The translations under genes and the position numbers were made by a program. A DNA stretch of 64,000 nt from a virus, in the IMG/VR virus record IMGVR_UViG_3300010399_000035, positions 1 to 64,000 of that record. One strand, written 5' to 3'. The notes below the pieces were generated by a model. It worked only from the letters and a program-made list of their open reading frames with translations. It made no database searches and had not been told where the DNA came from. This document shows positions 280-13,459 of the stretch, piece after piece (positions within the stretch are counted from its first letter, which is position 1; each line of letters opens with the position of its first letter).

Positions 280-735
280 ATGGCTCTTCCCTTTAAACCC
301 GAGATTAAAGCGAGCATCATACGCCGGATGAAGGATGGCGAAGCAGTCTCAGACTTAGCCCGCGAGTTCCGTATCCTGCCCGGCACGATCCGCAACTGGC
401 TCAAAGCGGAGCAACTGGACCTCAAAGGCCTCAGTGCTAAGGAAAACGGTCAGGTCTTAGACGAGGCTATTTTCGACTATGTCGTAACGGCCCTCGAATG
501 CTTGACGATTCAAGCCCAAGTGTTTTCAGATGAAAGTTATCTCAAAACCCAATCAGCAGAGTCCAACGCTGTCCTCCATGGTGTCGTGGCGGACAAAGCG
601 ATTCGTATTCTCGAAGCAACCTCAGCCGTTGCACCAGAGAGCGACGGACTCAGCCTCGAGGATTTCGGGAACGAGGCTTTCCCCAACCACTACGAACCAG
701 CAACGGCAACTAGCGCAGTTGAAGCCGGAGCTTAG
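280..735 (+). CDS. Putative terminase small subunit (N-terminal HTH)
   Basis: HTH-like AVSDLAREFRILPGTIRNW; immediately upstream of and overlapping TerL. Confidence 0.65.
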   Translation: MALPFKPEIKASIIRRMKDGEAVSDLAREFRILPGTIRNWLKAEQLDLKGLSAKENGQVLDEAIFDYVVTALECLTIQAQVFSDESYLKTQSAESNAVLHGVVADKAIRILEATSAVAPESDGLSLEDFGNEAFPNHYEPATATSAVEAGA

Positions 736-2203
736 CCTTCGCGCCTTCATTAAGCTAGCGTGGCACGTCGTGGAGCCAGGGAATCAGTTTGTGCCAAATT
801 GGCACTTGGACTGCATTAGCGAACATCTGGAGGCGTGCACCTTCGGGCAATTGCGCTCGCTGATCATCAACATGCCACCTAGGTGCATGAAATCCCTCAG
901 CGTGGCCGTTTTCTGGCCAGCATGGGTATGGACTTTCCGTCCAGGGAGCCGCTGGCTGTTCGCTAGTTACTCCGAAGCCTTCTCCACGCGCGACAGCATG
1001 AAGTGTCGCCGCGTGATTAAGAGCGACTGGTACCAACGTAGGTTCGGCCACATCTATACCATATCCCGCGACCAGGACGCGAAGATGAGGTTCGAGAACT
1101 CCGCTGCTGGGTTCCGGCTGGCTTCTTCCGTGGCAGGTATGGGCACTGGCGAAGGCGGAGACTTCATCTGCCCGGACGACCCTCACAAAGTGAAGGAAGC
1201 GGAATCCGACGTGATTCGTCAAGGCGTAGTAGATTGGTGGTTCGAGACTATGCCCACTCGTTTCATTGATCCGAAGACCGTAGTGAAAGTTGTCACTATG
1301 CAGCGGATCAAGGAGAACGACCTCAGCGGAGAGATCCTCTCCAGAGAATTGGGCTATGAACATCTTTGCCTCCCGATGCGTTACGAGGAGGGTAGGACGT
1401 TCTACGAAGTACCGATCAAGCTGGAAAACGGTAAGCGGGCTAGCGCGGATGGTACAGAGCTACCGAAGGATGCCATCATAGGAACCACGCTGCAACGACT
1501 CCGCCCTGAACTCCGTGATCCACGTAAGGAAGATGGAGAATTGCTATGGCCGCAGCGCCTAGACGAACTGTCGGTGTTGCAGATGGAGGGTTCCCTCCTT
1601 GAATACGGTACGGCCGGACAGCTGCAACAGCGCCCCGCCCCACGTGGCGGAGGCATGCTGCAACGAGATTGGTTCAAGCTGGTGAAGGCCGTGCCCCGCG
1701 ATAGCAAGTTCGTGCGCTACTGGGACAAGGCGGGAACCGAAGGCGGCACTGGGGCACGGACTGCAGGCGTGCTGATGGCGAAGTATCCGGACGGGCGTTA
1801 CTGCGTAGTGGACGTGGTGAAGGGTCGGTGGGGTGCTACGGGCCGCGAACAAGTGATCGTTCAGACTGCCGAACTGGATGCCAGAATGTACGGTCGCGTG
1901 GAGACCTGGATCGAACAGGAACCAGGCAGCGGTGGGAAGGAATCTGCTGAGCTAACCATTCGCGCCTTGGCAGGTTATATAATCTACGCGGAGATTGTCC
2001 GAGGCGACAAGGTCACGCGTGCGGAACCGTTCTGCTCCCAGGCCAAAGCGAAGAACGTTGATATCATGGATGGTCTGTGGAACATAGAATACTTTGGCGA
2101 GATGGAATCCTTCCCCAACGGACGCTTGAAGGATCAAATCGACGGCACCAGCGGAGCCTTCAACAAACTCGCTCCGCCCAAACTGGAGTGGATTACCCAT
2201 TAA
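530..2203 (+). CDS. terL: Terminase large subunit (start uncertain: 530, 578, 629 or 719)
   Basis: INMPPRCMKS Walker A variant, ICPDDP Walker B, RYWDKA nuclease motif, LKDQIDG C-terminal motif. Confidence 0.93.
   Translation: MKVISKPNQQSPTLSSMVSWRTKRFVFSKQPQPLHQRATDSASRISGTRLSPTTTNQQRQLAQLKPELSLRAFIKLAWHVVEPGNQFVPNWHLDCISEHLEACTFGQLRSLIINMPPRCMKSLSVAVFWPAWVWTFRPGSRWLFASYSEAFSTRDSMKCRRVIKSDWYQRRFGHIYTISRDQDAKMRFENSAAGFRLASSVAGMGTGEGGDFICPDDPHKVKEAESDVIRQGVVDWWFETMPTRFIDPKTVVKVVTMQRIKENDLSGEILSRELGYEHLCLPMRYEEGRTFYEVPIKLENGKRASADGTELPKDAIIGTTLQRLRPELRDPRKEDGELLWPQRLDELSVLQMEGSLLEYGTAGQLQQRPAPRGGGMLQRDWFKLVKAVPRDSKFVRYWDKAGTEGGTGARTAGVLMAKYPDGRYCVVDVVKGRWGATGREQVIVQTAELDARMYGRVETWIEQEPGSGGKESAELTIRALAGYIIYAEIVRGDKVTRAEPFCSQAKAKNVDIMDGLWNIEYFGEMESFPNGRLKDQIDGTSGAFNKLAPPKLEWITH
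1326..1354 (+). repeat. Dispersed motif copy (in terL)
   Basis: GCGGAGAGATCCTCTCCAGAGAATTGGGC. Confidence 0.7.
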
Positions 2204-2258: not shown

Positions 2259-2543
2259 ATGGGCGGGGTGGACTCGTTCGGCAATCCGGTTGGCCCTGGG
2301 TATCCCTTCGAAGCCCACGTGGAACCACCCGGACCCGTCGCTGTAGATCCAGATACTCTGATTGATGGCACCGGGGAACGGATACCTGCACGCTCTCCAG
2401 AAAACGCGGGGCTTTCGCCAGCCGCAATCGGCACGATAGCGGCGCTAACCTTGCCACTCGTAGCAATCGTTTATATCACGGTTTTCGTGAAACTGTTTAC
2501 TTGGATGCTTATTGCGTTTACAGGACTGCGTGTGGTTCTCTAG
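2259..2543 (+). CDS. Small membrane protein
   Basis: Hydrophobic C-terminal half; lies between terL and portal. Confidence 0.45.
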   Translation: MGGVDSFGNPVGPGYPFEAHVEPPGPVAVDPDTLIDGTGERIPARSPENAGLSPAAIGTIAALTLPLVAIVYITVFVKLFTWMLIAFTGLRVVL

Positions 2544-2568
2544 GCGCCTATACATATACCACTACCTC

Positions 2569-4608
2569 ATGGGCTTCCTCTCACGCGCACTCACCCAACT
2601 TGGCAACGAAATTAAGGCTAACGTAAAAGTACCGTTCTCCATCTACGGCTCCTTGGGCCAAGGCGACGCGGGGATGGGCTATACCTCCTCGCGGGACATA
2701 GGCTACCTCTTCACCACGAACCCAGGAGCGCAGTACGACTACCTGACAGCTGCTGGTAATCTAGCCGAGAACTCCGTGGTAGCGGCGGCTAGCGAAGCTA
2801 TAGCTCGTGCATTGCCGGATGCACCCCCAATCCTGGAAGTCAAGAACAAGAAGGGCAAATGGGAATCCGCTGGGGACCACGAAGTATTGGACTTCCTTGG
2901 TTGGCCCAACGGCGCTCCCGACAAGGACGTTCGCGGGTACTCCGCAGCCCACCTTTGGGCGGCTACCATCCGCTCCGAGTATACGAACGGTAATGGCTTC
3001 TGGCGACTGGTGGTGGCCCGCGATGGCACTCCCCTTGAAGCCTGGTGGGAACCGTTCATGTCGCCCCGCTACAATAAGACGGAGTTCATCCAAGACTACG
3101 TGATTTACGTGGATGGCAAGCCCTACTACTTGCCAGTCGAACAAGTAGTCCACTTCCGCTTAGCGCTGAACCCATACAACTCGCGCTGGGGCTACACCCC
3201 ACTGTATACGGCTGTACGCCACGTAGACGGCGACAACCGAGCAGCCACGTTCCATACCGCGCTGCTCCGAAACGGAGCAGTGGGTTCGTACAGCGTATCG
3301 CTCAACGACTCCGCTGACTATGCCAAGGCGGGTATCACGCCCAAGCAATTCGACGCGACCTTAGCCAAGTGGGAGAAGCGACTACGTGGCGAGGGTGCGG
3401 GGCGAATGATCTCCAGTTCGCTGCCAGTGAAGATTGATAAGTTGGACTATTCGCCCAACGACCTGATGCTGGATAAGTTGGTGGCCTACTATGAATCCAG
3501 GATTTGCGCCGTGTTGGGCATCCCAGCGATGGTGATTGGCATATCTTCTGGAGACAGTACCAAGACCTATTCGAACTACGAAGAAGCACTGAAGGACTTC
3601 TGGCAGCGGACGATCAAGCCGCTTAACGGACTGCATGCTTCGGAGTTGGGAGCGCAGTTACTACCGCTGTTCGGCCTTAGCCCATCCGAGTATCGTATTA
3701 ACTGGGACTACAGCAACGTATCCGCTCTACAAGAATCCGTGGACGCAGTGCATACGCGGGCGCGAGCCAACTGGCAAGCAGACGGCATCACCCTGAACGA
3801 GTTCCGAGGCCACATCGGCGAAGAGACGAAACCGGAATTCGAGGATGTGTGGTACACCAACCAAGGTCCGAAGGAGATAAGTTCCTTCGACCCAAACGAC
3901 CCATCCAACCAGCCGCCCACACCCACCCCAACCCCACTCCCAAGCGGAGCATCCTCTCCAGAAGATGGGCCAACAACTCAAACTGACGAGGAGCAGTTGG
4001 CTGCGTTAGATAAGGGCGCGACGAAGTCGGAAGACGAACCACGCGACGAACATGGTAGGTGGACTTCGGAAGGCGACGACTCCACCACTCCTACTGAAGT
4101 CATAGCGCCACGCCCCGATACCAACCAGCCAACTTCCCGCTCCGAACTCTCCAAGTTGAACCACAAAGTCTCCACGAGGGAGAAGCAGCAATACGCGGAG
4201 CAGAACGAAGTCGACTTGGCGAAGCATCTAGGTGGATACTCCCTGGAAGATAACGAGCCGCCGGACATCATCGTACCGAATAAGTCCGGTAAGGGTCACC
4301 AGCCTATAGAGCTCAAGACGATGCTGGACAACGACCGCGATCGCATTACGTTGCATGCGGATTCCCTCGCTCGCAAGCAGCAGTATGCACAGGATAACAA
4401 AACGACGTTCCATACGGTGGTATTGGACCACCGCGATCGGTTCGCTGGAGGCGTGAACGCCCACCAGCACTCCGGGCACGAGATCTACTATCGACGGGGG
4501 CTAGGCAGCTACAAGCTGTCTGCAATGTACAAGGTGAAGGACCACGCCGAGTTGAACAAGCTAATCCATATGAGCAACAGCAAACTTCCGCTAGGAGCGC
4601 GACCATGA
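2569..4608 (+). CDS. HK97-type portal protein with C-terminal extension (Pro linker, cargo tag, PD-(D/E)xK-like domain)
   Basis: VVHFR, GYTPL, ICAVLGIP, TYSNYEE, ITLNEFR portal motifs; then TKSEDEPRDEHGRWT and EPPDIIV...IELKT. Confidence 0.9.
   Translation: MGFLSRALTQLGNEIKANVKVPFSIYGSLGQGDAGMGYTSSRDIGYLFTTNPGAQYDYLTAAGNLAENSVVAAASEAIARALPDAPPILEVKNKKGKWESAGDHEVLDFLGWPNGAPDKDVRGYSAAHLWAATIRSEYTNGNGFWRLVVARDGTPLEAWWEPFMSPRYNKTEFIQDYVIYVDGKPYYLPVEQVVHFRLALNPYNSRWGYTPLYTAVRHVDGDNRAATFHTALLRNGAVGSYSVSLNDSADYAKAGITPKQFDATLAKWEKRLRGEGAGRMISSSLPVKIDKLDYSPNDLMLDKLVAYYESRICAVLGIPAMVIGISSGDSTKTYSNYEEALKDFWQRTIKPLNGLHASELGAQLLPLFGLSPSEYRINWDYSNVSALQESVDAVHTRARANWQADGITLNEFRGHIGEETKPEFEDVWYTNQGPKEISSFDPNDPSNQPPTPTPTPLPSGASSPEDGPTTQTDEEQLAALDKGATKSEDEPRDEHGRWTSEGDDSTTPTEVIAPRPDTNQPTSRSELSKLNHKVSTREKQQYAEQNEVDLAKHLGGYSLEDNEPPDIIVPNKSGKGHQPIELKTMLDNDRDRITLHADSLARKQQYAQDNKTTFHTVVLDHRDRFAGGVNAHQHSGHEIYYRRGLGSYKLSAMYKVKDHAELNKLIHMSNSKLPLGARP
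3944..3971 (+). repeat. Dispersed motif copy (portal linker)
   Basis: GCGGAGCATCCTCTCCAGAAGATGGGCC. Confidence 0.9.
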
Positions 4609-5789
4609 CTTACGAAGCATATCTCAACGGCGAGTATGCCGGTCCCGCTGCTACGGTTAAGGGATGGGGGAACTTTGGTAGGTGGACAAGATGCTTGCCA
4701 GAAGACCAGTACCCAACGCTTAGCGAACTAGAGAAAAGTGGACGCATATCGAACGCCCATCTTCTGGCAGGAGAGCTCCGCCAGGGCATGCAGCAATTCC
4801 CGCCCCGCGAAGCGGTGCGGTCCACGGCGGAAGGATTGCTGGGATATGTAGGGGATGCCAGCGAAGGCGCGGTGTTGGAGATTAGCGATGGGACGGCGGA
4901 TGATGCGGACAACTCCGATCCAGGAGAGACTAAATCCGTAGATGACGAACCAAGGGACGAACGAGGCAGGTGGACGAGTGCTGGGTCCGACCAAGAAAAT
5001 AGAGTTTCTGAATTTTCTGCTGAGCAAGGAGGAAAACACTATGACTCTATAGTACTTCCACCTAGGACGGACGGCCCTAATGTGAAGTATACTGGTCCGG
5101 GCGAGTTCGACTATGAGCTAAAGACAGAGGATGGGAGTGATAGGCTAGCTTCCAACTATAGAGCTATATACCCGGACGAGCCTCACACAGTCAGAGATAT
5201 AACATGGCCTCAGATTTACGGAAAAGGTGGTGGGGCGGTAGATACTAGTCCAGAGAACCCAAGGGTCCCGGAACAAGTATTTAAGTTTTGGGCTACTAGC
5301 GGATTTCCTGTAAACCAGAAGAATGGTATTAACCCCCACCATCATCTAATTCGTGCTGCAGCCGATAGAATACTAGGAATTCATTCTACGTCTCCAGACC
5401 CAAAAGATTTTGGCAAGACCCTAAAGCCTGAGGAATACGATAACTTGGCTAGGAAACTGATAGAAGGTATCAAACAATCACCTGCCGAGCAACCTACTCT
5501 ATGGCGTGGTATAGGCTCTGACCAACTTAAGGCACTAGAGTCGGCTAGTCCTGGAGACGAAGTACAGTGGTCTCTCGCATCTACGAGCAGGGATCCGAAT
5601 ATAGCTTCTACGTACTCTACTTCAGGTATATTGAGAATAAAGTCCGGATCTAAGGGCATAGCAGTCAGAAGTCACTACCCACAGGATCAAGAAGTGATCT
5701 CCGGAGGCAGATATAAGATTCTTGGGTTCTCGAAAACGAGAGACGGAGTTACTGTAGTGGATGTAGAGCAGACAGGAGTTCATCAGTGA
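4605..5789 (+). CDS. Head-module polyprotein: unknown N-domain, cargo tag, ADP-ribosyltransferase-like domain
   Basis: LWRG, ASTSRD and QDQEVI give the R-S-E ART triad; ATGA overlap with portal. Confidence 0.7.
   Translation: MTYEAYLNGEYAGPAATVKGWGNFGRWTRCLPEDQYPTLSELEKSGRISNAHLLAGELRQGMQQFPPREAVRSTAEGLLGYVGDASEGAVLEISDGTADDADNSDPGETKSVDDEPRDERGRWTSAGSDQENRVSEFSAEQGGKHYDSIVLPPRTDGPNVKYTGPGEFDYELKTEDGSDRLASNYRAIYPDEPHTVRDITWPQIYGKGGGAVDTSPENPRVPEQVFKFWATSGFPVNQKNGINPHHHLIRAAADRILGIHSTSPDPKDFGKTLKPEEYDNLARKLIEGIKQSPAEQPTLWRGIGSDQLKALESASPGDEVQWSLASTSRDPNIASTYSTSGILRIKSGSKGIAVRSHYPQDQEVISGGRYKILGFSKTRDGVTVVDVEQTGVHQ
4755..4781 (-). repeat. Dispersed motif copy
   Basis: rc GCGGAGCTCTCCTGCCAGAAGATGGGC. 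Confidence 0.85.
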
Positions 5790-8281
5790 TAATCAGTCTC
5801 TCTGGTCTAGATAGCAGACAGCGGATTCCCGTAGTTCCGTTACCATCAATGGAGTTGAAGTCCTTCAACGGCTACTCCTACGCCTCCACGCAGGTGAATC
5901 TCCCCGAACCACTCGCAAGCCAAATCACGGATTGGGCCGCAGCCAATATCCCTGCCGATTCGCTGCACCCCGAATCCCAGGGTCAAGACGTGCCCCACAT
6001 CACTGTAAAGTACGGAATATTGGATGACTCGCCAGCGAGTTCGGAGGCGGCATTGAAGTTTACGGGTCCACTACAGGCTACGCTCCGCGCAATGAAGGTA
6101 TTCCGCTTTTCGCCTAACTATGACGTCCTCGTAATCGCTGTAGACAGTCCTGACCTGCACAATGCGAACAGCACGTTGAAGGCGTCTGTACCAACCGTAG
6201 ATACGTTCCCCACCTACGATCCCCACGTGACGGTGGCTTACGTTAAGAAGGGCGAAGGGGAGGCGTTCGATGGGAATGCCGAGTTTTCTGGGCAGGATCT
6301 GCAGTTCGGTAGCGTGATATTCAGTTCGAAGGATGGGCAGGAGTATGAAATCCCGTTGAATGGATACGACTTCTATTCGCCATACTCCTCCGATCCAGAA
6401 GATGCGCCTGACTTCCAATTAGATCCGACAGCAGTAAAGTACTCCGACGATGAGCCCCGCGATGACTCTGGTAAGTGGACCGCTGGAGGCTCCGAACCGA
6501 CCCACGAAGTAGACCCAAACTCCGCGCCGTATCCCAGCAACATAGCTATACAATCGGCGTTCGACGGAGGTCTCTCCAAGGATGAGTACCTCGAGCTAGC
6601 TAAAGATACGCCACGGCTACGCAACGAAGCCCAAGACTACGAAACCTTCGAGAAGGCGAATGATGATTGGGTGCGGAACGCTTCTGGAGAAGCGAAGACG
6701 GAAGTGGCCCATATTCTGGCGACGAACTCAGCGGTACGGACGCTATCCCTCCACGACGCCTGGCAGCAATCTGCTAAAGCGGGAGAGAAGTTCAGCGATT
6801 GGTTGGATCGGCCCCAAGAATTGCACCGCTACGGGTCGTTGTCCGGAGATCTAGTGTCCTTCGCGGCATCGGAAGCCAGAGCGAAGGATGCCTCTGGAGG
6901 CGAAGGCACTGGTGGCCACTCCACGGTACGGTTGGCTCCGAAGTATTGGTTGGGAGCGGGGCGGGGAATGGGCGAAGTGTACGTTGATCCCTCCATTCTT
7001 CGCAATGCTTCCGAGACCAAATCATGGGAAGACGAACCCCGCGACGAATCCGGCAAGTGGACCACTGGCGATGCAGACACCGACCGCAAGCTAGCCGCAC
7101 TGCGTTGGGAGGGGCGCAAGCTACGCGAGACGCTGAAGACTCACGAAGCGAAGCTGAAGGACGCCCGCTCACGCGGCGACGAAGCTGCCATTAAGGAGCA
7201 CGACGCCAACCACCGCCGCACCGCTATAGAACTGCGCAAGCTACGCGAGCAACACCATCAGTTGGCAGGCAAGAAAGAATATAAGAATCCGTACGAGAAA
7301 CGAGCGACGGACAAGGGTAGCGGAGACTCGCTCCAGAAGAGTGGGCCAACTTCGAAGCCAGAGGCCCAAGCAGTCAGGGAGCAAATACTCTCTGAATACA
7401 AATCTGTTTCGGATAATCTAGAGAAGCTTGGATCTGATGTCGTGTCTCACCAAATGGCCCAAGGTATCCTCACTGCTCAGATCAAGCAGATGCAAGATGA
7501 GAACGACGAAACTCCAAAGTATTCAGTTAGCCAAATGCTGGATCGTCTTCGTCCACTACAGGACAAGCGAAGCGAACACTATGAACAAATGACGGTCGCT
7601 CAAGGTAAGATAAACGAACTGAACAAGAGCTTAACCGATAAGCTTCGACAGCACTTGTATCAACCAGTATCAGTCAATGACTACAAACCGTATATCAGCA
7701 ACGAACTGCGGCCAAAAGAGCACCACATACAAGCAGGATTAGATTCATTTCACAGACTGGCTGGGGATTCTATACCCGCTCCTAAAGGCATTGCGTTCCA
7801 GAAAACCAAAGGTAAGGAACGATCCAACGCTACAGCCGCTCAAGTTTCTCTGGATCCCAACGCTGAAGAGTCTGTAGTAGTGCACGAACTCGGTCATGTT
7901 CTGGAGAGCAACAATCCTCAGTTACACGAAGCAGCGGTGAAGTTCCTGGCGAAGCGGACGGCTGGGGAGAAGTTGGAGTCGCTAAAGAAAGTTACAGGAT
8001 TCCGATACGGAGCGCAAGAGAAGACGAGGAAAGATAAGTTCATCAACGCCTACATGGGCAAAGACTATACTCCTCAGTATTTTCAGGAATTACGCAAACA
8101 AGTACCCAAAGGCGAAATCCCTGTCGAGTACTATACAGACCCGAAAATAAACCAATATACCGAAATCATCTCTATGGGTCTGGAGTATATGCATTCCCAG
8201 CCTCATGTTCTGGCAGAGAAGGATCCGGAGTACTTTGACTTCATGTATAACGTATTAAGGGGCAATTACGATGCTGTTTGA
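5786..8281 (+). CDS. Polyvalent protein: 2H phosphoesterase (T4 57B/Acb1-like), tag, minimal ART-like domain, tag, zincin metallopeptidase
   Basis: HITVKYG and PHVTVAY (two HxT motifs); LHRYG..VSF..GEVYV; HELGH with downstream TEIISMG. Confidence 0.75.
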   Translation: MIISLSGLDSRQRIPVVPLPSMELKSFNGYSYASTQVNLPEPLASQITDWAAANIPADSLHPESQGQDVPHITVKYGILDDSPASSEAALKFTGPLQATLRAMKVFRFSPNYDVLVIAVDSPDLHNANSTLKASVPTVDTFPTYDPHVTVAYVKKGEGEAFDGNAEFSGQDLQFGSVIFSSKDGQEYEIPLNGYDFYSPYSSDPEDAPDFQLDPTAVKYSDDEPRDDSGKWTAGGSEPTHEVDPNSAPYPSNIAIQSAFDGGLSKDEYLELAKDTPRLRNEAQDYETFEKANDDWVRNASGEAKTEVAHILATNSAVRTLSLHDAWQQSAKAGEKFSDWLDRPQELHRYGSLSGDLVSFAASEARAKDASGGEGTGGHSTVRLAPKYWLGAGRGMGEVYVDPSILRNASETKSWEDEPRDESGKWTTGDADTDRKLAALRWEGRKLRETLKTHEAKLKDARSRGDEAAIKEHDANHRRTAIELRKLREQHHQLAGKKEYKNPYEKRATDKGSGDSLQKSGPTSKPEAQAVREQILSEYKSVSDNLEKLGSDVVSHQMAQGILTAQIKQMQDENDETPKYSVSQMLDRLRPLQDKRSEHYEQMTVAQGKINELNKSLTDKLRQHLYQPVSVNDYKPYISNELRPKEHHIQAGLDSFHRLAGDSIPAPKGIAFQKTKGKERSNATAAQVSLDPNAEESVVVHELGHVLESNNPQLHEAAVKFLAKRTAGEKLESLKKVTGFRYGAQEKTRKDKFINAYMGKDYTPQYFQELRKQVPKGEIPVEYYTDPKINQYTEIISMGLEYMHSQPHVLAEKDPEYFDFMYNVLRGNYDAV

Positions 8282-8322
8282 TTTGCCGAGCGTTGGCGGA
8301 CGGATTCGCGAAGGGGTTCATT

Positions 8323-8745
8323 ATGTCAGTTAAAGTACGCTTGGCCTCCGGCGAAGAAGCGATCGTGGACGGCTACGAATGGGTGGCGGCGGATCCCTCC
8401 TTGCGGCGAATGCTGAACTCCTTCCGCCAGCCATACGGCCCCTCCGCGAGCGACCCCGACCCGGACTATTCGCTGGCGGAAGCAGCCGTGAAGTTGTTCG
8501 GAGGGGAGATTATTAGTGCAGACCCACCGCTGGACCCACCCCAATATGGTAGCACTAGCGCCGAAGGCGCTGGTGTGGGGAGCGGAGCACTCTCCCCAGA
8601 GAACGGTCAAATAAAATCCACATCTCCTGACAGCGACGTACCCGACTTCACGGATCCCAACGTCCAGAAAAGTACCGCATCCGAATCCTATGCGCAAGCG
8701 TCTGCACCACTTAAAGAGCTCCTCGCGGCGGACGTGGTGGACTAG
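8323..8745 (+). CDS. Hypothetical protein (possible partner or immunity protein of the upstream zincin)
   Basis: ORF fills the gap in the head operon; ATG at 8323. Confidence 0.55.
   Translation: MSVKVRLASGEEAIVDGYEWVAADPSLRRMLNSFRQPYGPSASDPDPDYSLAEAAVKLFGGEIISADPPLDPPQYGSTSAEGAGVGSGALSPENGQIKSTSPDSDVPDFTDPNVQKSTASESYAQASAPLKELLAADVVD
8582..8608 (+). repeat. Dispersed motif copy
   Basis: GCGGAGCACTCTCCCCAGAGAACGGTC. Confidence 0.7.
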
Positions 8746-8747
8746 CT

Positions 8748-9380
8748 ATGGACTTCAAGCCAAAGAGTCTGCTGCGCTATTCGCGCAAGCTGCTGAAGTA
8801 CCTAGACCAGGACAATAAGGTGCTCTCCGCGAAGGCCGTGCGGAAGATAGTAGATGGCGATATAGAGGCTACCGCAGGTAGACTCTACTCTCTACTCCAA
8901 GACTTCCAGTCGGGCCAACTCAGTGAAGAACAGTTCCGTAAAGACTTCAAGAAGTCAGTGGCCAACCTTCATCTTGCTCACGTAGCCGCTGCTCAAGGCG
9001 GCTTCCGCAATATGACGCAAGCTGCCTGGGGCTTCGCGGGGCAGCGGATCCGACAGCAGTATGGGTACGTGGATGGGCTGGTTAGCGATATACAAGCAGG
9101 TAAGTTAAGCGGACCAAACGGCCTGGTCCGCATGAAATTATGGGCCTCCAGCGCGATGGATTCGTACGAGGCTATGCTTCAAAAAGTGCATAGTCCAACT
9201 GACTTCCCCTTCGCGGAGAACTTGTTGAACCAGCAGAACATTAGCGAGAAGAACTGCCCGATTTGCACCGGACTGACAGCCATTGGAATAACCGACCGCG
9301 ACGACATACCGCTCCCAGAAGACCGGCACTTCGGCTGCAATTGCGGCATTGCTTACCACCGTACGCTTGACGGAGATTGA
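8748..9380 (+). CDS. MuF/SPP1 gp7-like head morphogenesis protein
   Basis: C-terminal CPIC...HFGCNC metal-binding motif; position between portal and protease. Confidence 0.7.
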   Translation: MDFKPKSLLRYSRKLLKYLDQDNKVLSAKAVRKIVDGDIEATAGRLYSLLQDFQSGQLSEEQFRKDFKKSVANLHLAHVAAAQGGFRNMTQAAWGFAGQRIRQQYGYVDGLVSDIQAGKLSGPNGLVRMKLWASSAMDSYEAMLQKVHSPTDFPFAENLLNQQNISEKNCPICTGLTAIGITDRDDIPLPEDRHFGCNCGIAYHRTLDGD

Positions 9381-9383
9381 ATT

Positions 9384-12050
9384 ATGACTGCTACCGCTTC
9401 GCTATACGAACCAACCGACTTGGCGCTGAAGGAATACGGCTTCGGTGGCAGTGCCACCTACGGAGGCCAATCAGCTTCCGACAAAGCTGCACGGAGTGAA
9501 TTTATGAAAACTGCCGCCGATGTCCTTATTAGCTACGGATCCGAACTCAAAGCCGAAGGAACTGACGCCAATGGCGACTTCCACTTCGGCGGCTACTTGG
9601 TGCTGTTCGATAGCCACGATGTCTCGCGTCAGCGGGATAAGTATCTGAAGTCTACCGATTACGACTTCGAGGATGGGGACAAGACCACCATCTATTTCCA
9701 TCACGGATTGGACGAGACCCTCAAGGCCACCAAGCTAGGCACCGGCAAGTTGTACATGAAGGATGCTGGCGTGTGGATGGATGGAATCATCAAGGCCCGC
9801 ACGGACTACCTCGCGAAGCACGTAGACAAGATCAAGGACGGGATTAAAGGCGGGGTATTTGGGCTGAGTAGCGGCGTCCCCGCTCATCTAGTGGAGCGTA
9901 AGGCCGTCCCCGCTGGCCACGAAGTGCTGACCTGGCCTCTAGGCAAGGATGCTTCCATTACGCACATCCCCGCCGAGCCCAAAACGATGTGCTTTTCGCT
10001 CAAATCACTTATGGAAGAGGAGAGCGGAGAAGCTCTCCCAGAAGATGGCCCATTTTCTGGAGCGGATGACCTCGAACTGAAATACTCCGACGATGAAGAG
10101 AGGGATGATCATGGTCGGTGGACTTCAGGTAGCGATGAGGCCGACCAAGTACATGGTGCTACCAGCGAGGCTCGTTCAGCTACTCAAGCTGCGATAGGGT
10201 CGACCTCCGCTATTAAGGCGTCGGCAGGACGTGCGGCTACGCAATCTATGTCTGCATTAGGTGCGACTACCTCTGGCGAGGCCGAAGAAGCCCACAATAA
10301 GGCTGCTCGCTATCATTTATCCACGGCAGCCATGCATACGGAGCATGCCAAAGCGCTAAATGCTTCTGGTTCCGCAGACTCTGCGAAAGAAGCCCAGGAG
10401 CATACAGCTGCAGCTACTTTACACACAACAGCAGCTACTATGCATCGAGCCATGGCTCGTAAGGCTGGGCAGAACGCATTCAGTAATATTAACCTGGCGG
10501 AAGATGTGGTGGGCCGAGCCTTAAGAGGCAACTACGGCTTGTCTACCAAGACTGATGCGGTTAAGTCAGCCCATCGACTGATGCGAGGAGCTCAGATTAT
10601 AGTTCCTGAATCCCATCCCGCTAGACCTCACATAGACGACGCCAAGGAGTCTCTAGAGAAAGCTGTTCACTCAAACGGAGAGCGGAGGGACGCTCATTTG
10701 AGGGAAGCCAAGCAGCACATCGCCAAGGCGTACGAAAAAGGTGTGGCTGCCCCATTCAATAGATATGTTGATCCGGCGTCGGGAGTAGCTAAGAAGGATG
10801 ATGGGTCAGATGACCTCGAACTGAAGTACTCCGATGACCAGGAACGCGACGATCGTGGCCGCTGGACAGCTGGTGGGGCGAGCGATGCAAAGGACGCATC
10901 TGACAGCGCTCACGAAGCTTCGACGGGAGCCCAAGGCCCACTTTCGTCCAAGGCGTGGCATAGCTCCGATAAGGCGAAGACCTTCGCTGCCATGGCAGGT
11001 AAAGCAACCTCAGATAACAGTCGCGAAGCTTACCATGGCAATGCAGCAGCCTATCACGAAGAAGCTAGCAAGACGCATAGCGACGCTGCAGTTCGCGCTG
11101 GAGCTCAAGGCGACCATGAAAGCCAGACTGCCCACTCGGACGCCGCTGCTAAGCACACCACCGCAGCCGCAATGCACCGTGGTATGGCGAAGGCGGCTGC
11201 CGTGAGCCAAAGCTACGAGGTAAACCCTCATAGTTTGGTTAATAACACGGCAGAGCAGCTATCCTCCGTTCACGCAGGTAGGGAGACAATCCATTCGTTT
11301 GCCCAGAGGTTGAAGCAGTCTCATGATAGACTCTCGCAAGCCGTTGATCATGTCAGTACCGACCATCCAGCATATGCACACTTAGTGATGGCTAAGGAGT
11401 CTACGAACAAGGCTCTCCACTCCCGAGGGGACACTCGGAAGCAGCACGTGGCAGAAGCTATGAACCATGTGCGGAATGCTCAGATGAGTGGTATCGGTCG
11501 AGCAGCCAAATCAGAGGACGACGACAACGAAGGTGCATTCAAGTCCGAAAGCATAATTACTCCTGACGTTATACAGGTTCTGGCGGATGGTCGGCATGTA
11601 GGCCTCCGCTTCCAGGACCACCCAAAAGTGGTGCTTGCAGCCATGAAGGGATTCGTACATCGCTTGTTCGATTGGCACGTGGATCGAACTGCGAGTCGTA
11701 AGTCGGGTCAGGTATACTCCGGTGATAACTGGGATATGCACGACACCATTTGCAACGGAATGGCGCAGATGGTGCAGCAGTACCGTAATCACCTGGACGA
11801 CAACTGCCCGCCTGGACGTAAACCGTGCAAGGTCCCTGTAGTGCAACTAGGTACCGCAGCCCCACTGTCGTGGTCGGAATCGGGTGGAGCGTTAGGTACC
11901 GACCAATTCAAGGCTGATGCAGCCGACGCCAGCGCCGACGCGCTGGAACGGATGGAAGCTGAGTTGCTCGAACGTCAAGCCGCCTTCGCCCGCCTTCGGG
12001 CCGATGGGTTGCTGATCCAAGAGCGAATGGTTGCAGCTGCGGTTGACTAG
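9384..12050 (+). CDS. Prohead protease (HK97/assemblin fold) fused to two tagged Ala/His-rich modules
   Basis: GYLVLF, YFHHG, GLSSG, ASITHIPAEP protease motifs; two DDLELKYSDDxERDDxGRWT-headed modules of about 245 aa. Confidence 0.85.
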   Translation: MTATASLYEPTDLALKEYGFGGSATYGGQSASDKAARSEFMKTAADVLISYGSELKAEGTDANGDFHFGGYLVLFDSHDVSRQRDKYLKSTDYDFEDGDKTTIYFHHGLDETLKATKLGTGKLYMKDAGVWMDGIIKARTDYLAKHVDKIKDGIKGGVFGLSSGVPAHLVERKAVPAGHEVLTWPLGKDASITHIPAEPKTMCFSLKSLMEEESGEALPEDGPFSGADDLELKYSDDEERDDHGRWTSGSDEADQVHGATSEARSATQAAIGSTSAIKASAGRAATQSMSALGATTSGEAEEAHNKAARYHLSTAAMHTEHAKALNASGSADSAKEAQEHTAAATLHTTAATMHRAMARKAGQNAFSNINLAEDVVGRALRGNYGLSTKTDAVKSAHRLMRGAQIIVPESHPARPHIDDAKESLEKAVHSNGERRDAHLREAKQHIAKAYEKGVAAPFNRYVDPASGVAKKDDGSDDLELKYSDDQERDDRGRWTAGGASDAKDASDSAHEASTGAQGPLSSKAWHSSDKAKTFAAMAGKATSDNSREAYHGNAAAYHEEASKTHSDAAVRAGAQGDHESQTAHSDAAAKHTTAAAMHRGMAKAAAVSQSYEVNPHSLVNNTAEQLSSVHAGRETIHSFAQRLKQSHDRLSQAVDHVSTDHPAYAHLVMAKESTNKALHSRGDTRKQHVAEAMNHVRNAQMSGIGRAAKSEDDDNEGAFKSESIITPDVIQVLADGRHVGLRFQDHPKVVLAAMKGFVHRLFDWHVDRTASRKSGQVYSGDNWDMHDTICNGMAQMVQQYRNHLDDNCPPGRKPCKVPVVQLGTAAPLSWSESGGALGTDQFKADAADASADALERMEAELLERQAAFARLRADGLLIQERMVAAAVD
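10024..10060 (+). repeat. Dispersed motif copy with inverted half
   Basis: GCGGAGAAGCTCTCCCAGAAGATGGCCCATTTTCTGG. Confidence 0.9.
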
Positions 12051-12106
12051 TAGTTCAACGAACTAGTTCGTTGAACAGTAGCATAGTAAAGAGGAATGCA
12101 AGCACA

Positions 12107-13459
12107 ATGCCAACTTTAAAAGAGAAAAATGACCAACTCGCGAAGCTGCGAGCGGATCACCAGAAGCGGTTCGAGGCGTTCGACGCCGAAACCAACAGCG
12201 GACGCAAGTCTGCTATCCTGCAGGAAATCAACCGGGCTGAAGTGGACATCAAGTCCCTCAGCGACGAAGTGGCGCAGGAAGTCCAAGTCGTCGAAATGAA
12301 GCGGCGCAACGAGCAGGAGATGAAGGGTCTGCGGATTCCCGCTGGCGTCGGGGTGCCCTTCCCCGAGCGTGGCGGCAAGGACGGCGAGCTTCATGGCGAG
12401 CGCATGAGCGCCATCAAGTCCGTCGGTCAGTCCCTGATCGACGACAAGTCGGACATCATGCACAAGTTCCGCGAGTACAACGAGAAGTACGACGTGGTCT
12501 ACGAGTACCCGTTCCGCTCCGTGGGTGAATGGAAGGCTGCGATCCAGGCGGAAATGAAGACCACCCTCACTGAGAGCGGCTTCACCTCATACGATCGTCT
12601 GCCGAACATCATCACCCTCGGCGCTCAGGTGCCGATGGTCCGCGACTTGATCCCTCAGGGCCAGACCACCGCGATCACCATCCGCTACCCACGTGAAGTA
12701 TCGTTCACCAATGGTGCGACGAACGTCGCGGAAGGTGGCCAGAAGCCGGAAGCCGCATTCAACCTCGCTGAGGTGGATGCTCCCGTTCGGAAGATCGCCG
12801 TCGTGGCTCGTGTCACCGACGAAATGTTCGCTGACTTCCCGGCTGTCCGCGACTATATCAACATGCGGCTCCCCTTCATGGTGGAGCAGCAGGAAGATAA
12901 CCAGATCCTGAACGGCAACGGCACCAGCCCGAACCTGCAGGGCATTCTGGGCACCACTGGTGTGCTGTCCGGCGGCGCGTTGAACCAGTCGGCTGATCCG
13001 CAGAACGACCCGATCGTGAACGTGATCCTGCGTGCGATCACGCGCATCCAGGCTGAGTCCTTCTTCCAGCCTACGGGTATCGTGATCAACCCGTTCGACT
13101 GGGAGAACGTCCGCCTGATGCGTTCCGGAACCGGCGATGCTGCCGGTGGCGCGAACCGTGGGCTGTACCTGTTCGGTAACCCGGACGGTATGGGGATTGA
13201 CTCCATCTGGGGTCTGCCTGTGGTGAAGACCGTATACTGCCCTCGCGGTAAGGTACTGGTCGGCGCGTTCTCCTTGGGAGCACAGATCTTCCGTCGCGAA
13301 GGCATCACCATGCAGATGTCGAACTCCGATGGTAACGACTTCTCTTACAACCGCGTTGCTTTGCGGGTGGAAGAGCGTCTCGCTTTGGCTGTGTACCGCC
13401 CGAGCGCCTTCGGCGTCTGCACCCTGCATTCGAGCGGCGAAGCTTCCAGCAGCGCATAA
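12107..13459 (+). CDS. Major capsid protein, HK97 fold with delta domain
   Basis: VAEGGQKPE, EDNQILNGNG, LRVEERLALAVYRPSAF; AGAGGA RBS; strongly biased codon use. Confidence 0.95.
   Translation: MPTLKEKNDQLAKLRADHQKRFEAFDAETNSGRKSAILQEINRAEVDIKSLSDEVAQEVQVVEMKRRNEQEMKGLRIPAGVGVPFPERGGKDGELHGERMSAIKSVGQSLIDDKSDIMHKFREYNEKYDVVYEYPFRSVGEWKAAIQAEMKTTLTESGFTSYDRLPNIITLGAQVPMVRDLIPQGQTTAITIRYPREVSFTNGATNVAEGGQKPEAAFNLAEVDAPVRKIAVVARVTDEMFADFPAVRDYINMRLPFMVEQQEDNQILNGNGTSPNLQGILGTTGVLSGGALNQSADPQNDPIVNVILRAITRIQAESFFQPTGIVINPFDWENVRLMRSGTGDAAGGANRGLYLFGNPDGMGIDSIWGLPVVKTVYCPRGKVLVGAFSLGAQIFRREGITMQMSNSDGNDFSYNRVALRVEERLALAVYRPSAFGVCTLHSSGEASSSA

Follow-up and report, generated by a model that had tools for sequence, protein, structure and literature searches.

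Six copies of a peptide motif of about 15 residues, referred to here as the tag, were found in the portal, prohead protease and polyprotein genes of a viral head module, within a 64,000-nt stretch of DNA (positions 1 to 64,000 of IMG/VR record IMGVR_UViG_3300010399_000035, hereafter the window). They are probably copies of a widespread short linear peptide that marks the N-terminal boundary of exchangeable, protease-delimited cargo cassettes, a reading that is drawn from sequence comparison and in which cleavage ahead of the tag and a head component that reads the tag are predicted. Seven cargo modules are encoded in the window (M1 to M5 and two Ala/His-rich modules; Table 1), of which six begin with a tag and one, the 2H phosphoesterase M3, does not.

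All six copies are in frame with long plus-strand open reading frames (ORFs), and a six-frame regular-expression scan placed them at the positions reported in an initial annotation made from the sequence alone. They follow the pattern K-[SY]-x-[DE]-D-[EQ]-[PE]-R-D-x-x-G-[RK]-W-T. The start of the motif reads T-K-S at 4021 in the portal ORF (2512-4608), at 4929 in ORF 4605-5789 and at 7016 in ORF 5786-8281, V-K-Y at 6434 in the last of these ORFs, and L-K-Y at 10077 and 10821 in the protease ORF (9384-12050). A search with RD[DE].G[RK]W in six-frame translation returned exactly six matches in the window and in the whole 85,035-bp genome, and seven columns (K, D, R, D, G, W and T) are invariant among the copies. 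The linkers before the tags are acidic and of low complexity, which might suggest that the similarity is due to chance or composition; this explanation is refuted, with a negligible likelihood, since 200 shuffled versions of the window gave a mean of 0.0 matches (maximum 0), and since seven columns are invariant and a profile of the motif has significant matches in over 1,000 further protein clusters. The acidic or Pro-rich linkers that had been described before every tag precede five of the six, whereas tag 4 is preceded by 'VDPSILRNASE'. Pairwise nucleotide identity of the 45-nt tag cores is 56-73%, with many synonymous differences; codon choice thus varies freely among the copies, which points to selection on the peptide and not to recently copied DNA. 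In two AlphaFold2 (AF2) models, an Arg-Trp beta-bridge forms in the tag with a hairpin on D-x-x-G, at a predicted local distance difference test (pLDDT) score of 28-52 and within disordered linkers; a low-confidence hairpin in a disordered linker is what would be expected of a short motif read in trans. A likeness to YD/RHS repeats (Y-D-x-x-G-R-L) was considered and rejected, as PF05593 (RHS_repeat) had no match in the genome at E ≤ 10. A G-R-W-T string also occurs outside any tag, in 'KGWGNFGRWTRC' at residues 21-32 of ORF 4605 (nt 4665-4700).

A 38-column profile built from the six tags was searched against 1.84 billion representatives; it matched 1,033 protein clusters at E ≤ 1e-3, of which 200 reached E ≤ 1e-10. 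The tag-bearing proteins are up to 3,849 aa long, with up to 10 tags each as defined by regular expression, and the wide consensus is h-x-K-Y-S-[PED]-D-Q-P-R-D-[ED]-H-G-R-W-T-x-G-G-G. In 88 of 201 proteins a short leader is followed by the first tag within the first 40 aa; tags are spaced at a median of 248 aa and the stretch behind the last one has a median length of 269 aa, and tags therefore head modules and do not tail them. Pfam architectures of tag bearers include the carrier domains Phage_portal, Phage_Mu_F, Peptidase_S78 and S78_2, so that portal and protease, which the initial annotation had proposed as carriers in the window, are seen in this role in many other phages as well. The domains catalogued behind the tag in other phages are ADP-ribosyltransferases (ARTs; ADPrib_exo_Tox and ART-PolyVal), GNAT, Acb1/2H, zeta toxin (Zeta_toxin), NUDIX, ParB, pyrophosphatase (InPase) and others. 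Head genes were present within 10 kb of the tag in 33 of 35 IMG/VR tag loci, and a scan of bacterial genome contigs confirmed at least one tag locus. An amphipathic leader of the form '..(D/E)LLxLRxxLxK/YS' was observed before the first tag in P0010, P0012, P0038, P0052, P0091, P0144 and P0152 (a slash, here and below, marks the boundary before a tag or a corresponding candidate cleavage position); by analogy with the T4 capsid targeting sequence it may be a removable targeting helix.

Among cultured phages, tblastn with a 40-aa tag stretch gave one weak match, in Nocardia phage P3.1 (MW582532, 6004-6714, QSL67859), where a 'capsid maturation protease' starts MARRK/FNPRQPRDLRGRW, a variant of the tag. 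At 236 aa and very basic, QSL67859 looks unlike a protease and may be mis-annotated. A six-tag protein used as query gave nothing useful among cultured phages, and no match was found in plasmids, in searches that are insensitive for a 15-residue motif. No Pfam (E ≤ 5) or NCBIfam (E ≤ 1) model covered the tag when modules were searched together with the tag that starts them.

The lysine before the tag matches the predicted maturation site of the major capsid protein, as the initial annotation had noted from the EMK-TT junction of this capsid. The capsid protein is homologous to HK97 gp5 chains (PDB 1ohg/2gp1; E 1e-46), with its capsid domain starting at residue 176-177, and gp5 homology together with an N-terminal extension of about 100-160 aa identifies it as an HK97-fold protein. 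HK97 capsid is cut at K103/S104 (PMC10275583). The junction is present in the window protein as the candidate maturation site E-M-K163/T164 (nt 12557-12562): residue 176 aligns with residue 17 of mature gp5, which projects the mature N-terminus to about residue 160, and K163/T164 is 4 residues off. Across capsids of phages with the same protease subfamily, the K163 column is Lys in 9 of 9, followed by T or A, and the sequence upstream is variable. E-T-K, E-L-K, E-A-K, A-T-K and A-V-K occur at the junctions of the window and of its relative, and those of the two other tag-bearing lineages of the same protease subfamily read E-L-K, A-T-K, A-I-K and E-W-K, such that all three lineages have [E/A]-x-K/. 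More widely, a given protein keeps the same residues ahead of each of its tags, and these residues differ between phages (xxK/, LLA/, RRA/, LR/, DA/G, GGGG/H). Among loci typed by protease, K or R precedes the tag in 11 of 12 S78 loci versus 0 of 3 phrog_530-type loci (Fisher p about 0.009). Comparison of capsid boundary and tag prefix in the same phage showed a shared P1 residue for the window (EMK/T vs E-x-K/), L041 (AIK/A vs SIK/Y), L042 (EVR/G vs SIR/G), L043 (ETR/S vs ATR/S), L044 (ETR/D vs EER/S) and P0194 (GGGGGGG/S vs GGGG/H). Capsid boundaries outside the window were chosen by eye, and the match of P1 residues is for this reason suggestive only.

In the 888-aa protease ORF, tag-headed modules that add up to about 500 residues lie between the protease domain and the C-terminal tail. 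The ORF's own score against PF04586 is 15.7 bits (E 0.017), under the cut-off of 21, and homologues with 51-54% identity (E about 1e-50) match PF04586 and are named 'phage head maturation protease'. Profile comparison by hhalign with an S78 alignment gave E 9e-5 and a probability of 59% for a query of only 3 sequences, the catalytic residues H107 and S162 do not vary among 17 aligned sequences, and a PDB sequence search with the protease domain gave no match. Tag-free homologues (P0203-P0213) consist of the protease domain, 'SLKSL', a short linker and a similar C-terminal tail; from this comparison, the Ala/His modules are taken to be insertions in the protease linker. The two Ala/His modules described earlier are indeed present behind tags 5 and 6, but they are tandem paralogues and hence not independent instances. 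The ORF contains 12 [EA]-x-K-[STYA] sites versus 3.9 expected, and because many of these are internal to the Ala/His modules, the modules may be degraded like scaffold; from their sequence they may be scaffold-like filler that is chopped in the same manner, and not delivered effectors. Two putative sites, RAAK/SE and GAFK/SE, were observed at the border with the conserved tail. In another phage (that of L030), the tail of the protease at L041 3-905 (minus strand) reads 'KHGDHDQSEHGNWAHSDGG' and looks like a degenerate copy of the tag.

Comparison with close relatives showed that cassette differences end at tags, in agreement with the earlier proposal that the tag starts exchangeable modules. 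The capsid proteins of two IMG/VR contigs are 97% identical to that of the window, but the cargo is different. In the relative L001 (IMGVR_UViG_3300005339_000005), a single 883-aa polyprotein takes the place of ORFs 4605-5789 and 5786-8281, a different module follows tag 2, and M4 is missing; tag 1 is kept in L001 and in P0161, with indels in the linker 3' of it. DNA homology between the window and L001 ends at 4909, just before tag 2, and starts again at 5858, the Lys codon of ELK/S, where L001 reads T-E-T-K/SFNGYS inside one long ORF; it also breaks at 6486/7019, at 10123 (the end of tag 5) and at 10823. A single L001 tag aligns to both tags 3 and 4, which flank the extra cassette M4 of the window, and M1, M2 and M3 recur behind tags in unrelated polyproteins. 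These differences fit exchange at cassette boundaries. The tag DNA had also been suggested to serve as a swap joint; homology does break at the tags, but no two tags of the genome share more than 73% of the 45 nt and the linker before the tag differs as well at the single indel examined, so that the case for crossover inside tag DNA is only circumstantial. The protease of the relative has only one RDxxGRW cassette and a ~300-aa N-terminal insertion with another motif. This insertion (L001 7092-8060) begins, after Y-T-E-T-K/A, with DDDTGWRTIDGRHVYF, followed by Ala/His/Lys-rich sequence, and the DDDTGWRTIDGRHVYF motif may, from its sequence, be a second tag type; this second type (TGWRTIDGRHVYF) was not found in 202 pooled tag-bearing proteins.

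In the mechanism that we favour, one cassette would enter the procapsid as an extension of the portal at its C-terminus, the end that points into the capsid, two would ride in the HK97-type protease, within the linker that joins its catalytic domain to its C-terminal tail, and the remaining cassettes would be parts of two polyproteins whose genes lie between those of the portal and the MuF-like protein. Once in the procapsid, the S78 protease would be expected to cut after [E/A]-x-K, the site type of delta-domain removal (E-M-K163/T), and the cut would free each module with the tag as its new N-terminus. More tentatively, the core D-[EQ]-P-R-D-x-x-G-R-W may form a small hairpin that is read in trans by a conserved head component, and this would serve substrate recruitment, retention or exit. 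Tag and cut site appear to be separable, in that ELK/S precedes the 2H module without a tag in the window (the cut-site motif likewise stands alone in the relative), some tags lack Lys, and the same core occurs under different protease and capsid families. Several observations weigh against cleavage-delimited, tag-read cassettes. The match between capsid site and tag prefix comes from six phages, with five boundaries set by eye and L045 ambiguous, and duplication or gene conversion of cassettes could account in part for the uniform prefix within a protein. Of the 80 phages of this protease subfamily that were fetched, only 3 carry tags, which indicates that the tag goes with the cargo and that the protease can do without it; the core does not change across protease and capsid families, so that the reader is not obvious; and some tags of K-type proteins are without Lys (W-D-E-S-x-H-P-R-D variants). 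Finally, E-x-K-[STYA] occurs 15 times in the head proteins versus about 4 expected, and its presence within folded modules (for example IELK/T at the catalytic site of the nuclease) means that specificity needs more than this motif.

The tag could instead belong to the protease site, as its primed side, or act as an exosite through which free-floating cargo is brought to the protease, with no role in retention or ejection after cleavage. This is a possible though unlikely account; it would explain why the tag always lies directly 3' of lineage-specific P-side residues, and a need at each junction fits the finding that every module has its own tag even where a portal or protease carrier already ensures packaging. 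Less easily explained are the capsid site and the ELK/S junction, which are without a tag, the unchanged core across phages with S78 and phrog_530-type proteases, the many proteins with a tag just a few residues in, so that cutting there would split off nothing sizeable, and the tags that lack the P1 residue of other tags in the same protein. Distinctly unlikely, in our assessment, is a more general role in which the core peptide would address cargo of many kinds to phage capsids, exposed by the protease at a new N-terminus and docking as a small R-D-x-x-G-R-W hairpin in trans at a conserved site inside the head. One candidate docking site would be the edge of the capsid P-domain sheet, vacated by a scaffold strand on maturation; docking would hold enzymes in the filled head until they exit with the DNA, and the variable residues before the tag would set the releasing protease. 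If this were true, the injected effectors of thousands of uncultured phages would be readable from sequence, and chosen proteins could be loaded into capsids.

That the motif is mainly a demarcation or recombination joint, like the VENN or Rhs pre-toxin motifs, and that the polyproteins work uncut, is quite improbable. The different cassette content of near-identical phages, the homology breaks at tags, the one L001 tag that aligns with both tags around the extra cassette, and the recurrence of modules behind tags in unrelated polyproteins would all be expected of a joint, but selection on the peptide and not on the DNA, and a linker that differs together with the cassette at the one indel examined, would not, and a pure DNA joint leaves unexplained a prefix that follows the protease family and the capsid maturation site. 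Processing of the tags by the HELGH metallopeptidase module, or by autoproteolysis, in place of the prohead protease is highly improbable. An HExxH module is present at the locus, and zincin-like processing of polyvalent proteins is proposed by Iyer et al. 2017 (PMC5512222); against this, such families are rare among tag bearers (SprT-like 1, ATLF 2 and M43 1, among 88 scanned), the residues upstream of the tag follow the head-protease family, and a disordered peptide of 15 residues is unlikely to cleave itself.

The cassettes share features with several known systems. In polyvalent proteins, unrelated effectors (ART, nuclease, 2H, metallopeptidase) are joined in a single chain whose gene lies with the late or virion genes; they are presumed to enter the particle and to reach the host together with the DNA, and are suspected to undergo proteolytic processing, with zincin-like domains proposed for this task (Iyer et al. 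2017, PMC5512222). At least two unrelated effector domains are likewise joined here, since ORF 5786-8281 combines the 2H, orphan and HExxH modules (ORF 4605-5789 has an N-terminal domain and an ART), and the window polyproteins lie in a late or virion gene setting, between the portal and capsid genes. Unlike polyvalent proteins, the window has the same tag at every junction but one, and portal and protease are also carriers; a term search of that paper returned neither a shared junction peptide nor a link between junctions and prohead-protease sites. In T4, a capsid targeting sequence on IPI-III and Alt is removed by gp21 (Mullaney and Black 1996, cited in PMC10052503). It too is short and adjoins the cut site of a prohead protease; it labels proteins for loading into the head and for injection, and is an N-terminal leader that is cut off by a protease cutting after Glu. 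In contrast, the peptide of the window lies after the predicted cut, would stay on the cargo, is repeated in polyproteins, and goes with an HK97-type protease and Lys; in place of a leader cut by a gp21-type protease at L/I-x-E, a probable S78/HK97-type protease and [E/A]-x-K/ junctions were found. Many head proteins of phiKZ and SPN3US, including the portal, are trimmed at a shared motif, and a protein bolus is ejected (PMC10052503, PMC7411985); at 13 of the 14 sites mapped, cutting takes off an N-terminal propeptide, what is kept is not reported to bear a conserved tag, and strings of swappable enzyme cassettes are present in the window phage and not in phiKZ or SPN3US. MuF polymorphic toxins (Jamet et al. 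2017, PMC5576092) have a head-assembly domain with a variable C-terminal toxin, and a term search of that paper returned no junction motif or cleavage. Many tag bearers elsewhere do have a MuF domain, but the MuF-like protein of the window is 210 aa long without a fused module, and the cargo is carried on portal, protease and polyproteins.

As in HK97 gp4/gp5, the window has a homologous capsid, a protease that is probably of the S78 type, with conserved His and Ser, and a candidate Lys site at the equivalent position; the HK97 protease gene is without foreign cassettes, whereas that of the window has tag-headed modules in its linker. Short peptides are also known from pre-toxin motifs (VENN in CdiA, DPxGL in Rhs), which lie between constant and variable parts and serve exchange, and from encapsulins, in which a short cargo-loading peptide docks cargo inside an HK97-fold shell; the tag differs from all of these in sequence, in its N-terminal position on the module and in the system. 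Thus protease-processed head proteins, polyvalent proteins and MuF toxins are known, and a shared junction peptide after the cut site, repeated in polyproteins and in protease and portal genes, is apparently undescribed: a literature search by motif strings and motif names returned no paper describing the tag, and wider searches on the topic returned only work on T4, phiKZ and SPN3US.

Phage proteins carried in the capsid act before phage gene expression and are therefore prime tools for counter-defence; an Acb1-like phosphoesterase, an ADP-ribosyltransferase and a nuclease are among the predicted cargo here. At present, virion proteomics is needed to find proteins of this kind. A sequence label with a protease-matched cut site would, if the proposal is true, allow effector repertoires to be listed from metagenomes, explain module exchange among near-identical phages, and give a means of packing foreign proteins into capsids of the HK97 type. 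The picture of processed internal proteins in T4 and phiKZ would then be extended to mid-sized HK97-type phages, with protease and portal as carriers.

Table 1. Coordinates of head genes, tags and cargo modules in the window (nt).
Feature	Coordinates	Strand	Remarks
Large terminase	530..2203	+	phrog_38 E 3e-59; Terminase_6C weak; start of head module
Portal proper with Pro/acidic linker, carrier 1	2512..4026	+	PF04860 E 5e-34, aa 88-432; phrog_2662
Tag 1, K/SEDEPRDEHGRWT	4024..4065	+	One residue shorter than the other five
M1, PD-(D/E)xK nuclease on portal C-terminus	4066..4605	+	PPD nt 4258, IELK nt 4306
Polyprotein 1, N-terminal ~109-aa domain, possible carrier	4605..4931	+	AF2 pLDDT <40
Tag 2, K/SVDDEPRDERGRWT	4932..4976	+	
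M2, R-S-E ADP-ribosyltransferase, C-terminal half	4977..5786	+	LWRG nt 5499, LASTS nt 5574, DQE nt 5685
Polyprotein 2 leader, tag-less junction E-L-K25/S	5786..5860	+	GTG start overlaps preceding stop; alternative ATG 5849
M3, 2H phosphoesterase, Acb1-like, untagged	5861..6436	+	HITVKYG nt 5996, HVTVAY nt 6224
Tag 3, K/YSDDEPRDDSGKWT	6437..6481	+	
M4, orphan domain	6482..7018	+	Missing from relative with 97% capsid identity
Tag 4, K/SWEDEPRDESGKWT	7019..7063	+	Peptide identical in L001
M5, coiled coil and HExxH metallopeptidase-like domain	7064..8278	+	HELGH nt 7883-7897
Stand-alone MuF-like head protein, 210 aa	8748..9380	+	CxxC...HxxCxC
HK97-type (S78) prohead protease domain and linker start, carrier 2	9384..10079	+	His107 nt 9702, Ser162 nt 9867
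Tag 5, K/YSDDEERDDHGRWT	10080..10124	+	
Ala/His-rich helical module 1, in protease linker	10125..10823	+	
Tag 6, K/YSDDQERDDRGRWT	10824..10868	+	
Ala/His-rich module 2, tandem paralogue of module 1	10869..11549	+	phmmer cross-matches
Conserved protease C-terminal tail	11550..12047	+	91% DNA identity with L001 from 11553
HK97-fold major capsid protein, ~163-aa delta domain	12071..13459	+	PF05065 E 7e-36

The identities proposed earlier for the cargo modules were supported to differing degrees. The PD-(D/E)xK label of M1 was borne out by its AF2 core (pLDDT 76-90), for which the best Foldseek matches were Hjc resolvases, the SPARDA nuclease, HincII and RecU (probability 1.0, template modelling score about 0.6 on the target), consistent with a restriction-endonuclease-like fold with D...E-x-K; the D..E-x-K residues (PPD...IELK) are kept in three lineages, and homologues in P0001 and L027 likewise lie behind a tag. 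The ART label of M2, the module behind tag 2, also held: an iterated hidden Markov model search connects M2 to the PF01129 region of P0025, and the best 14 matches of the AF2 model by VIA (Z 7.0-8.6) were all R-S-E ARTs of the C3, Vis, iota, VIP2, ExoS, Certhrax, SpvB and HopU1 types. In the motif alignment the third ART motif of M2 is D-Q-E, and that of relatives is E-x-E. M3 scored 33.4 bits against PF13563 (cut-off 27) and has two HxT motifs, as expected of the 2H family, and scored 24.6 bits against the Acb1 model PF23474, under the cut-off of 27; if packaged, it would be a pre-delivered enzyme of the anti-CBASS (cyclic oligonucleotide-based antiphage signalling system) type. M4 had been read as a second ART-like domain, which was not supported, with an hhalign probability of 0.2% to the ART family, no Pfam or NCBIfam match, and no homologue among the pooled local proteins. 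For M5, the zincin label is based on HELGH, on matches to PHROGs including minor head proteins (phrog_33618, E 1e-28; phrog_19443, 'minor head protein') and on a weak match to Reprolysin_3 (E 0.027).

The N-terminal domain of polyprotein 1 showed conservation only with L001/P0106. A frameshift fusion of ORFs 4605 and 5786 was considered and rejected, the upstream frame being open for just about 24 codons. The small plus-strand ORF 8278-8745 had no family match. The protein encoded at 8748-9380 is MuF-like by profile-profile comparison only (hhalign with a MuF alignment, probability 97.9%, E 4e-13); in P0164 and P0168, two polyproteins with tags, the N-terminal part is homologous to it, from which the domain is taken to be a cargo carrier in other phages. 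A DNA motif of ~27 bp, GCGGAG-N3-5-CTCTCC-CAGAAGATGGCC, which contains a small hairpin, was observed genome-wide, with copies at 3944-3975 and 10024-10055, also at 1326, 8582, 13593, 15304, 19657, 22258 and 30274, and on the minus strand. Two copies precede tags 1 and 5 by ~75 bp and are translated there as 'SG...PEDGP' within the linkers; the motif is an element of the DNA that does not depend on the tag, and could add recombination homology beside the cassettes.

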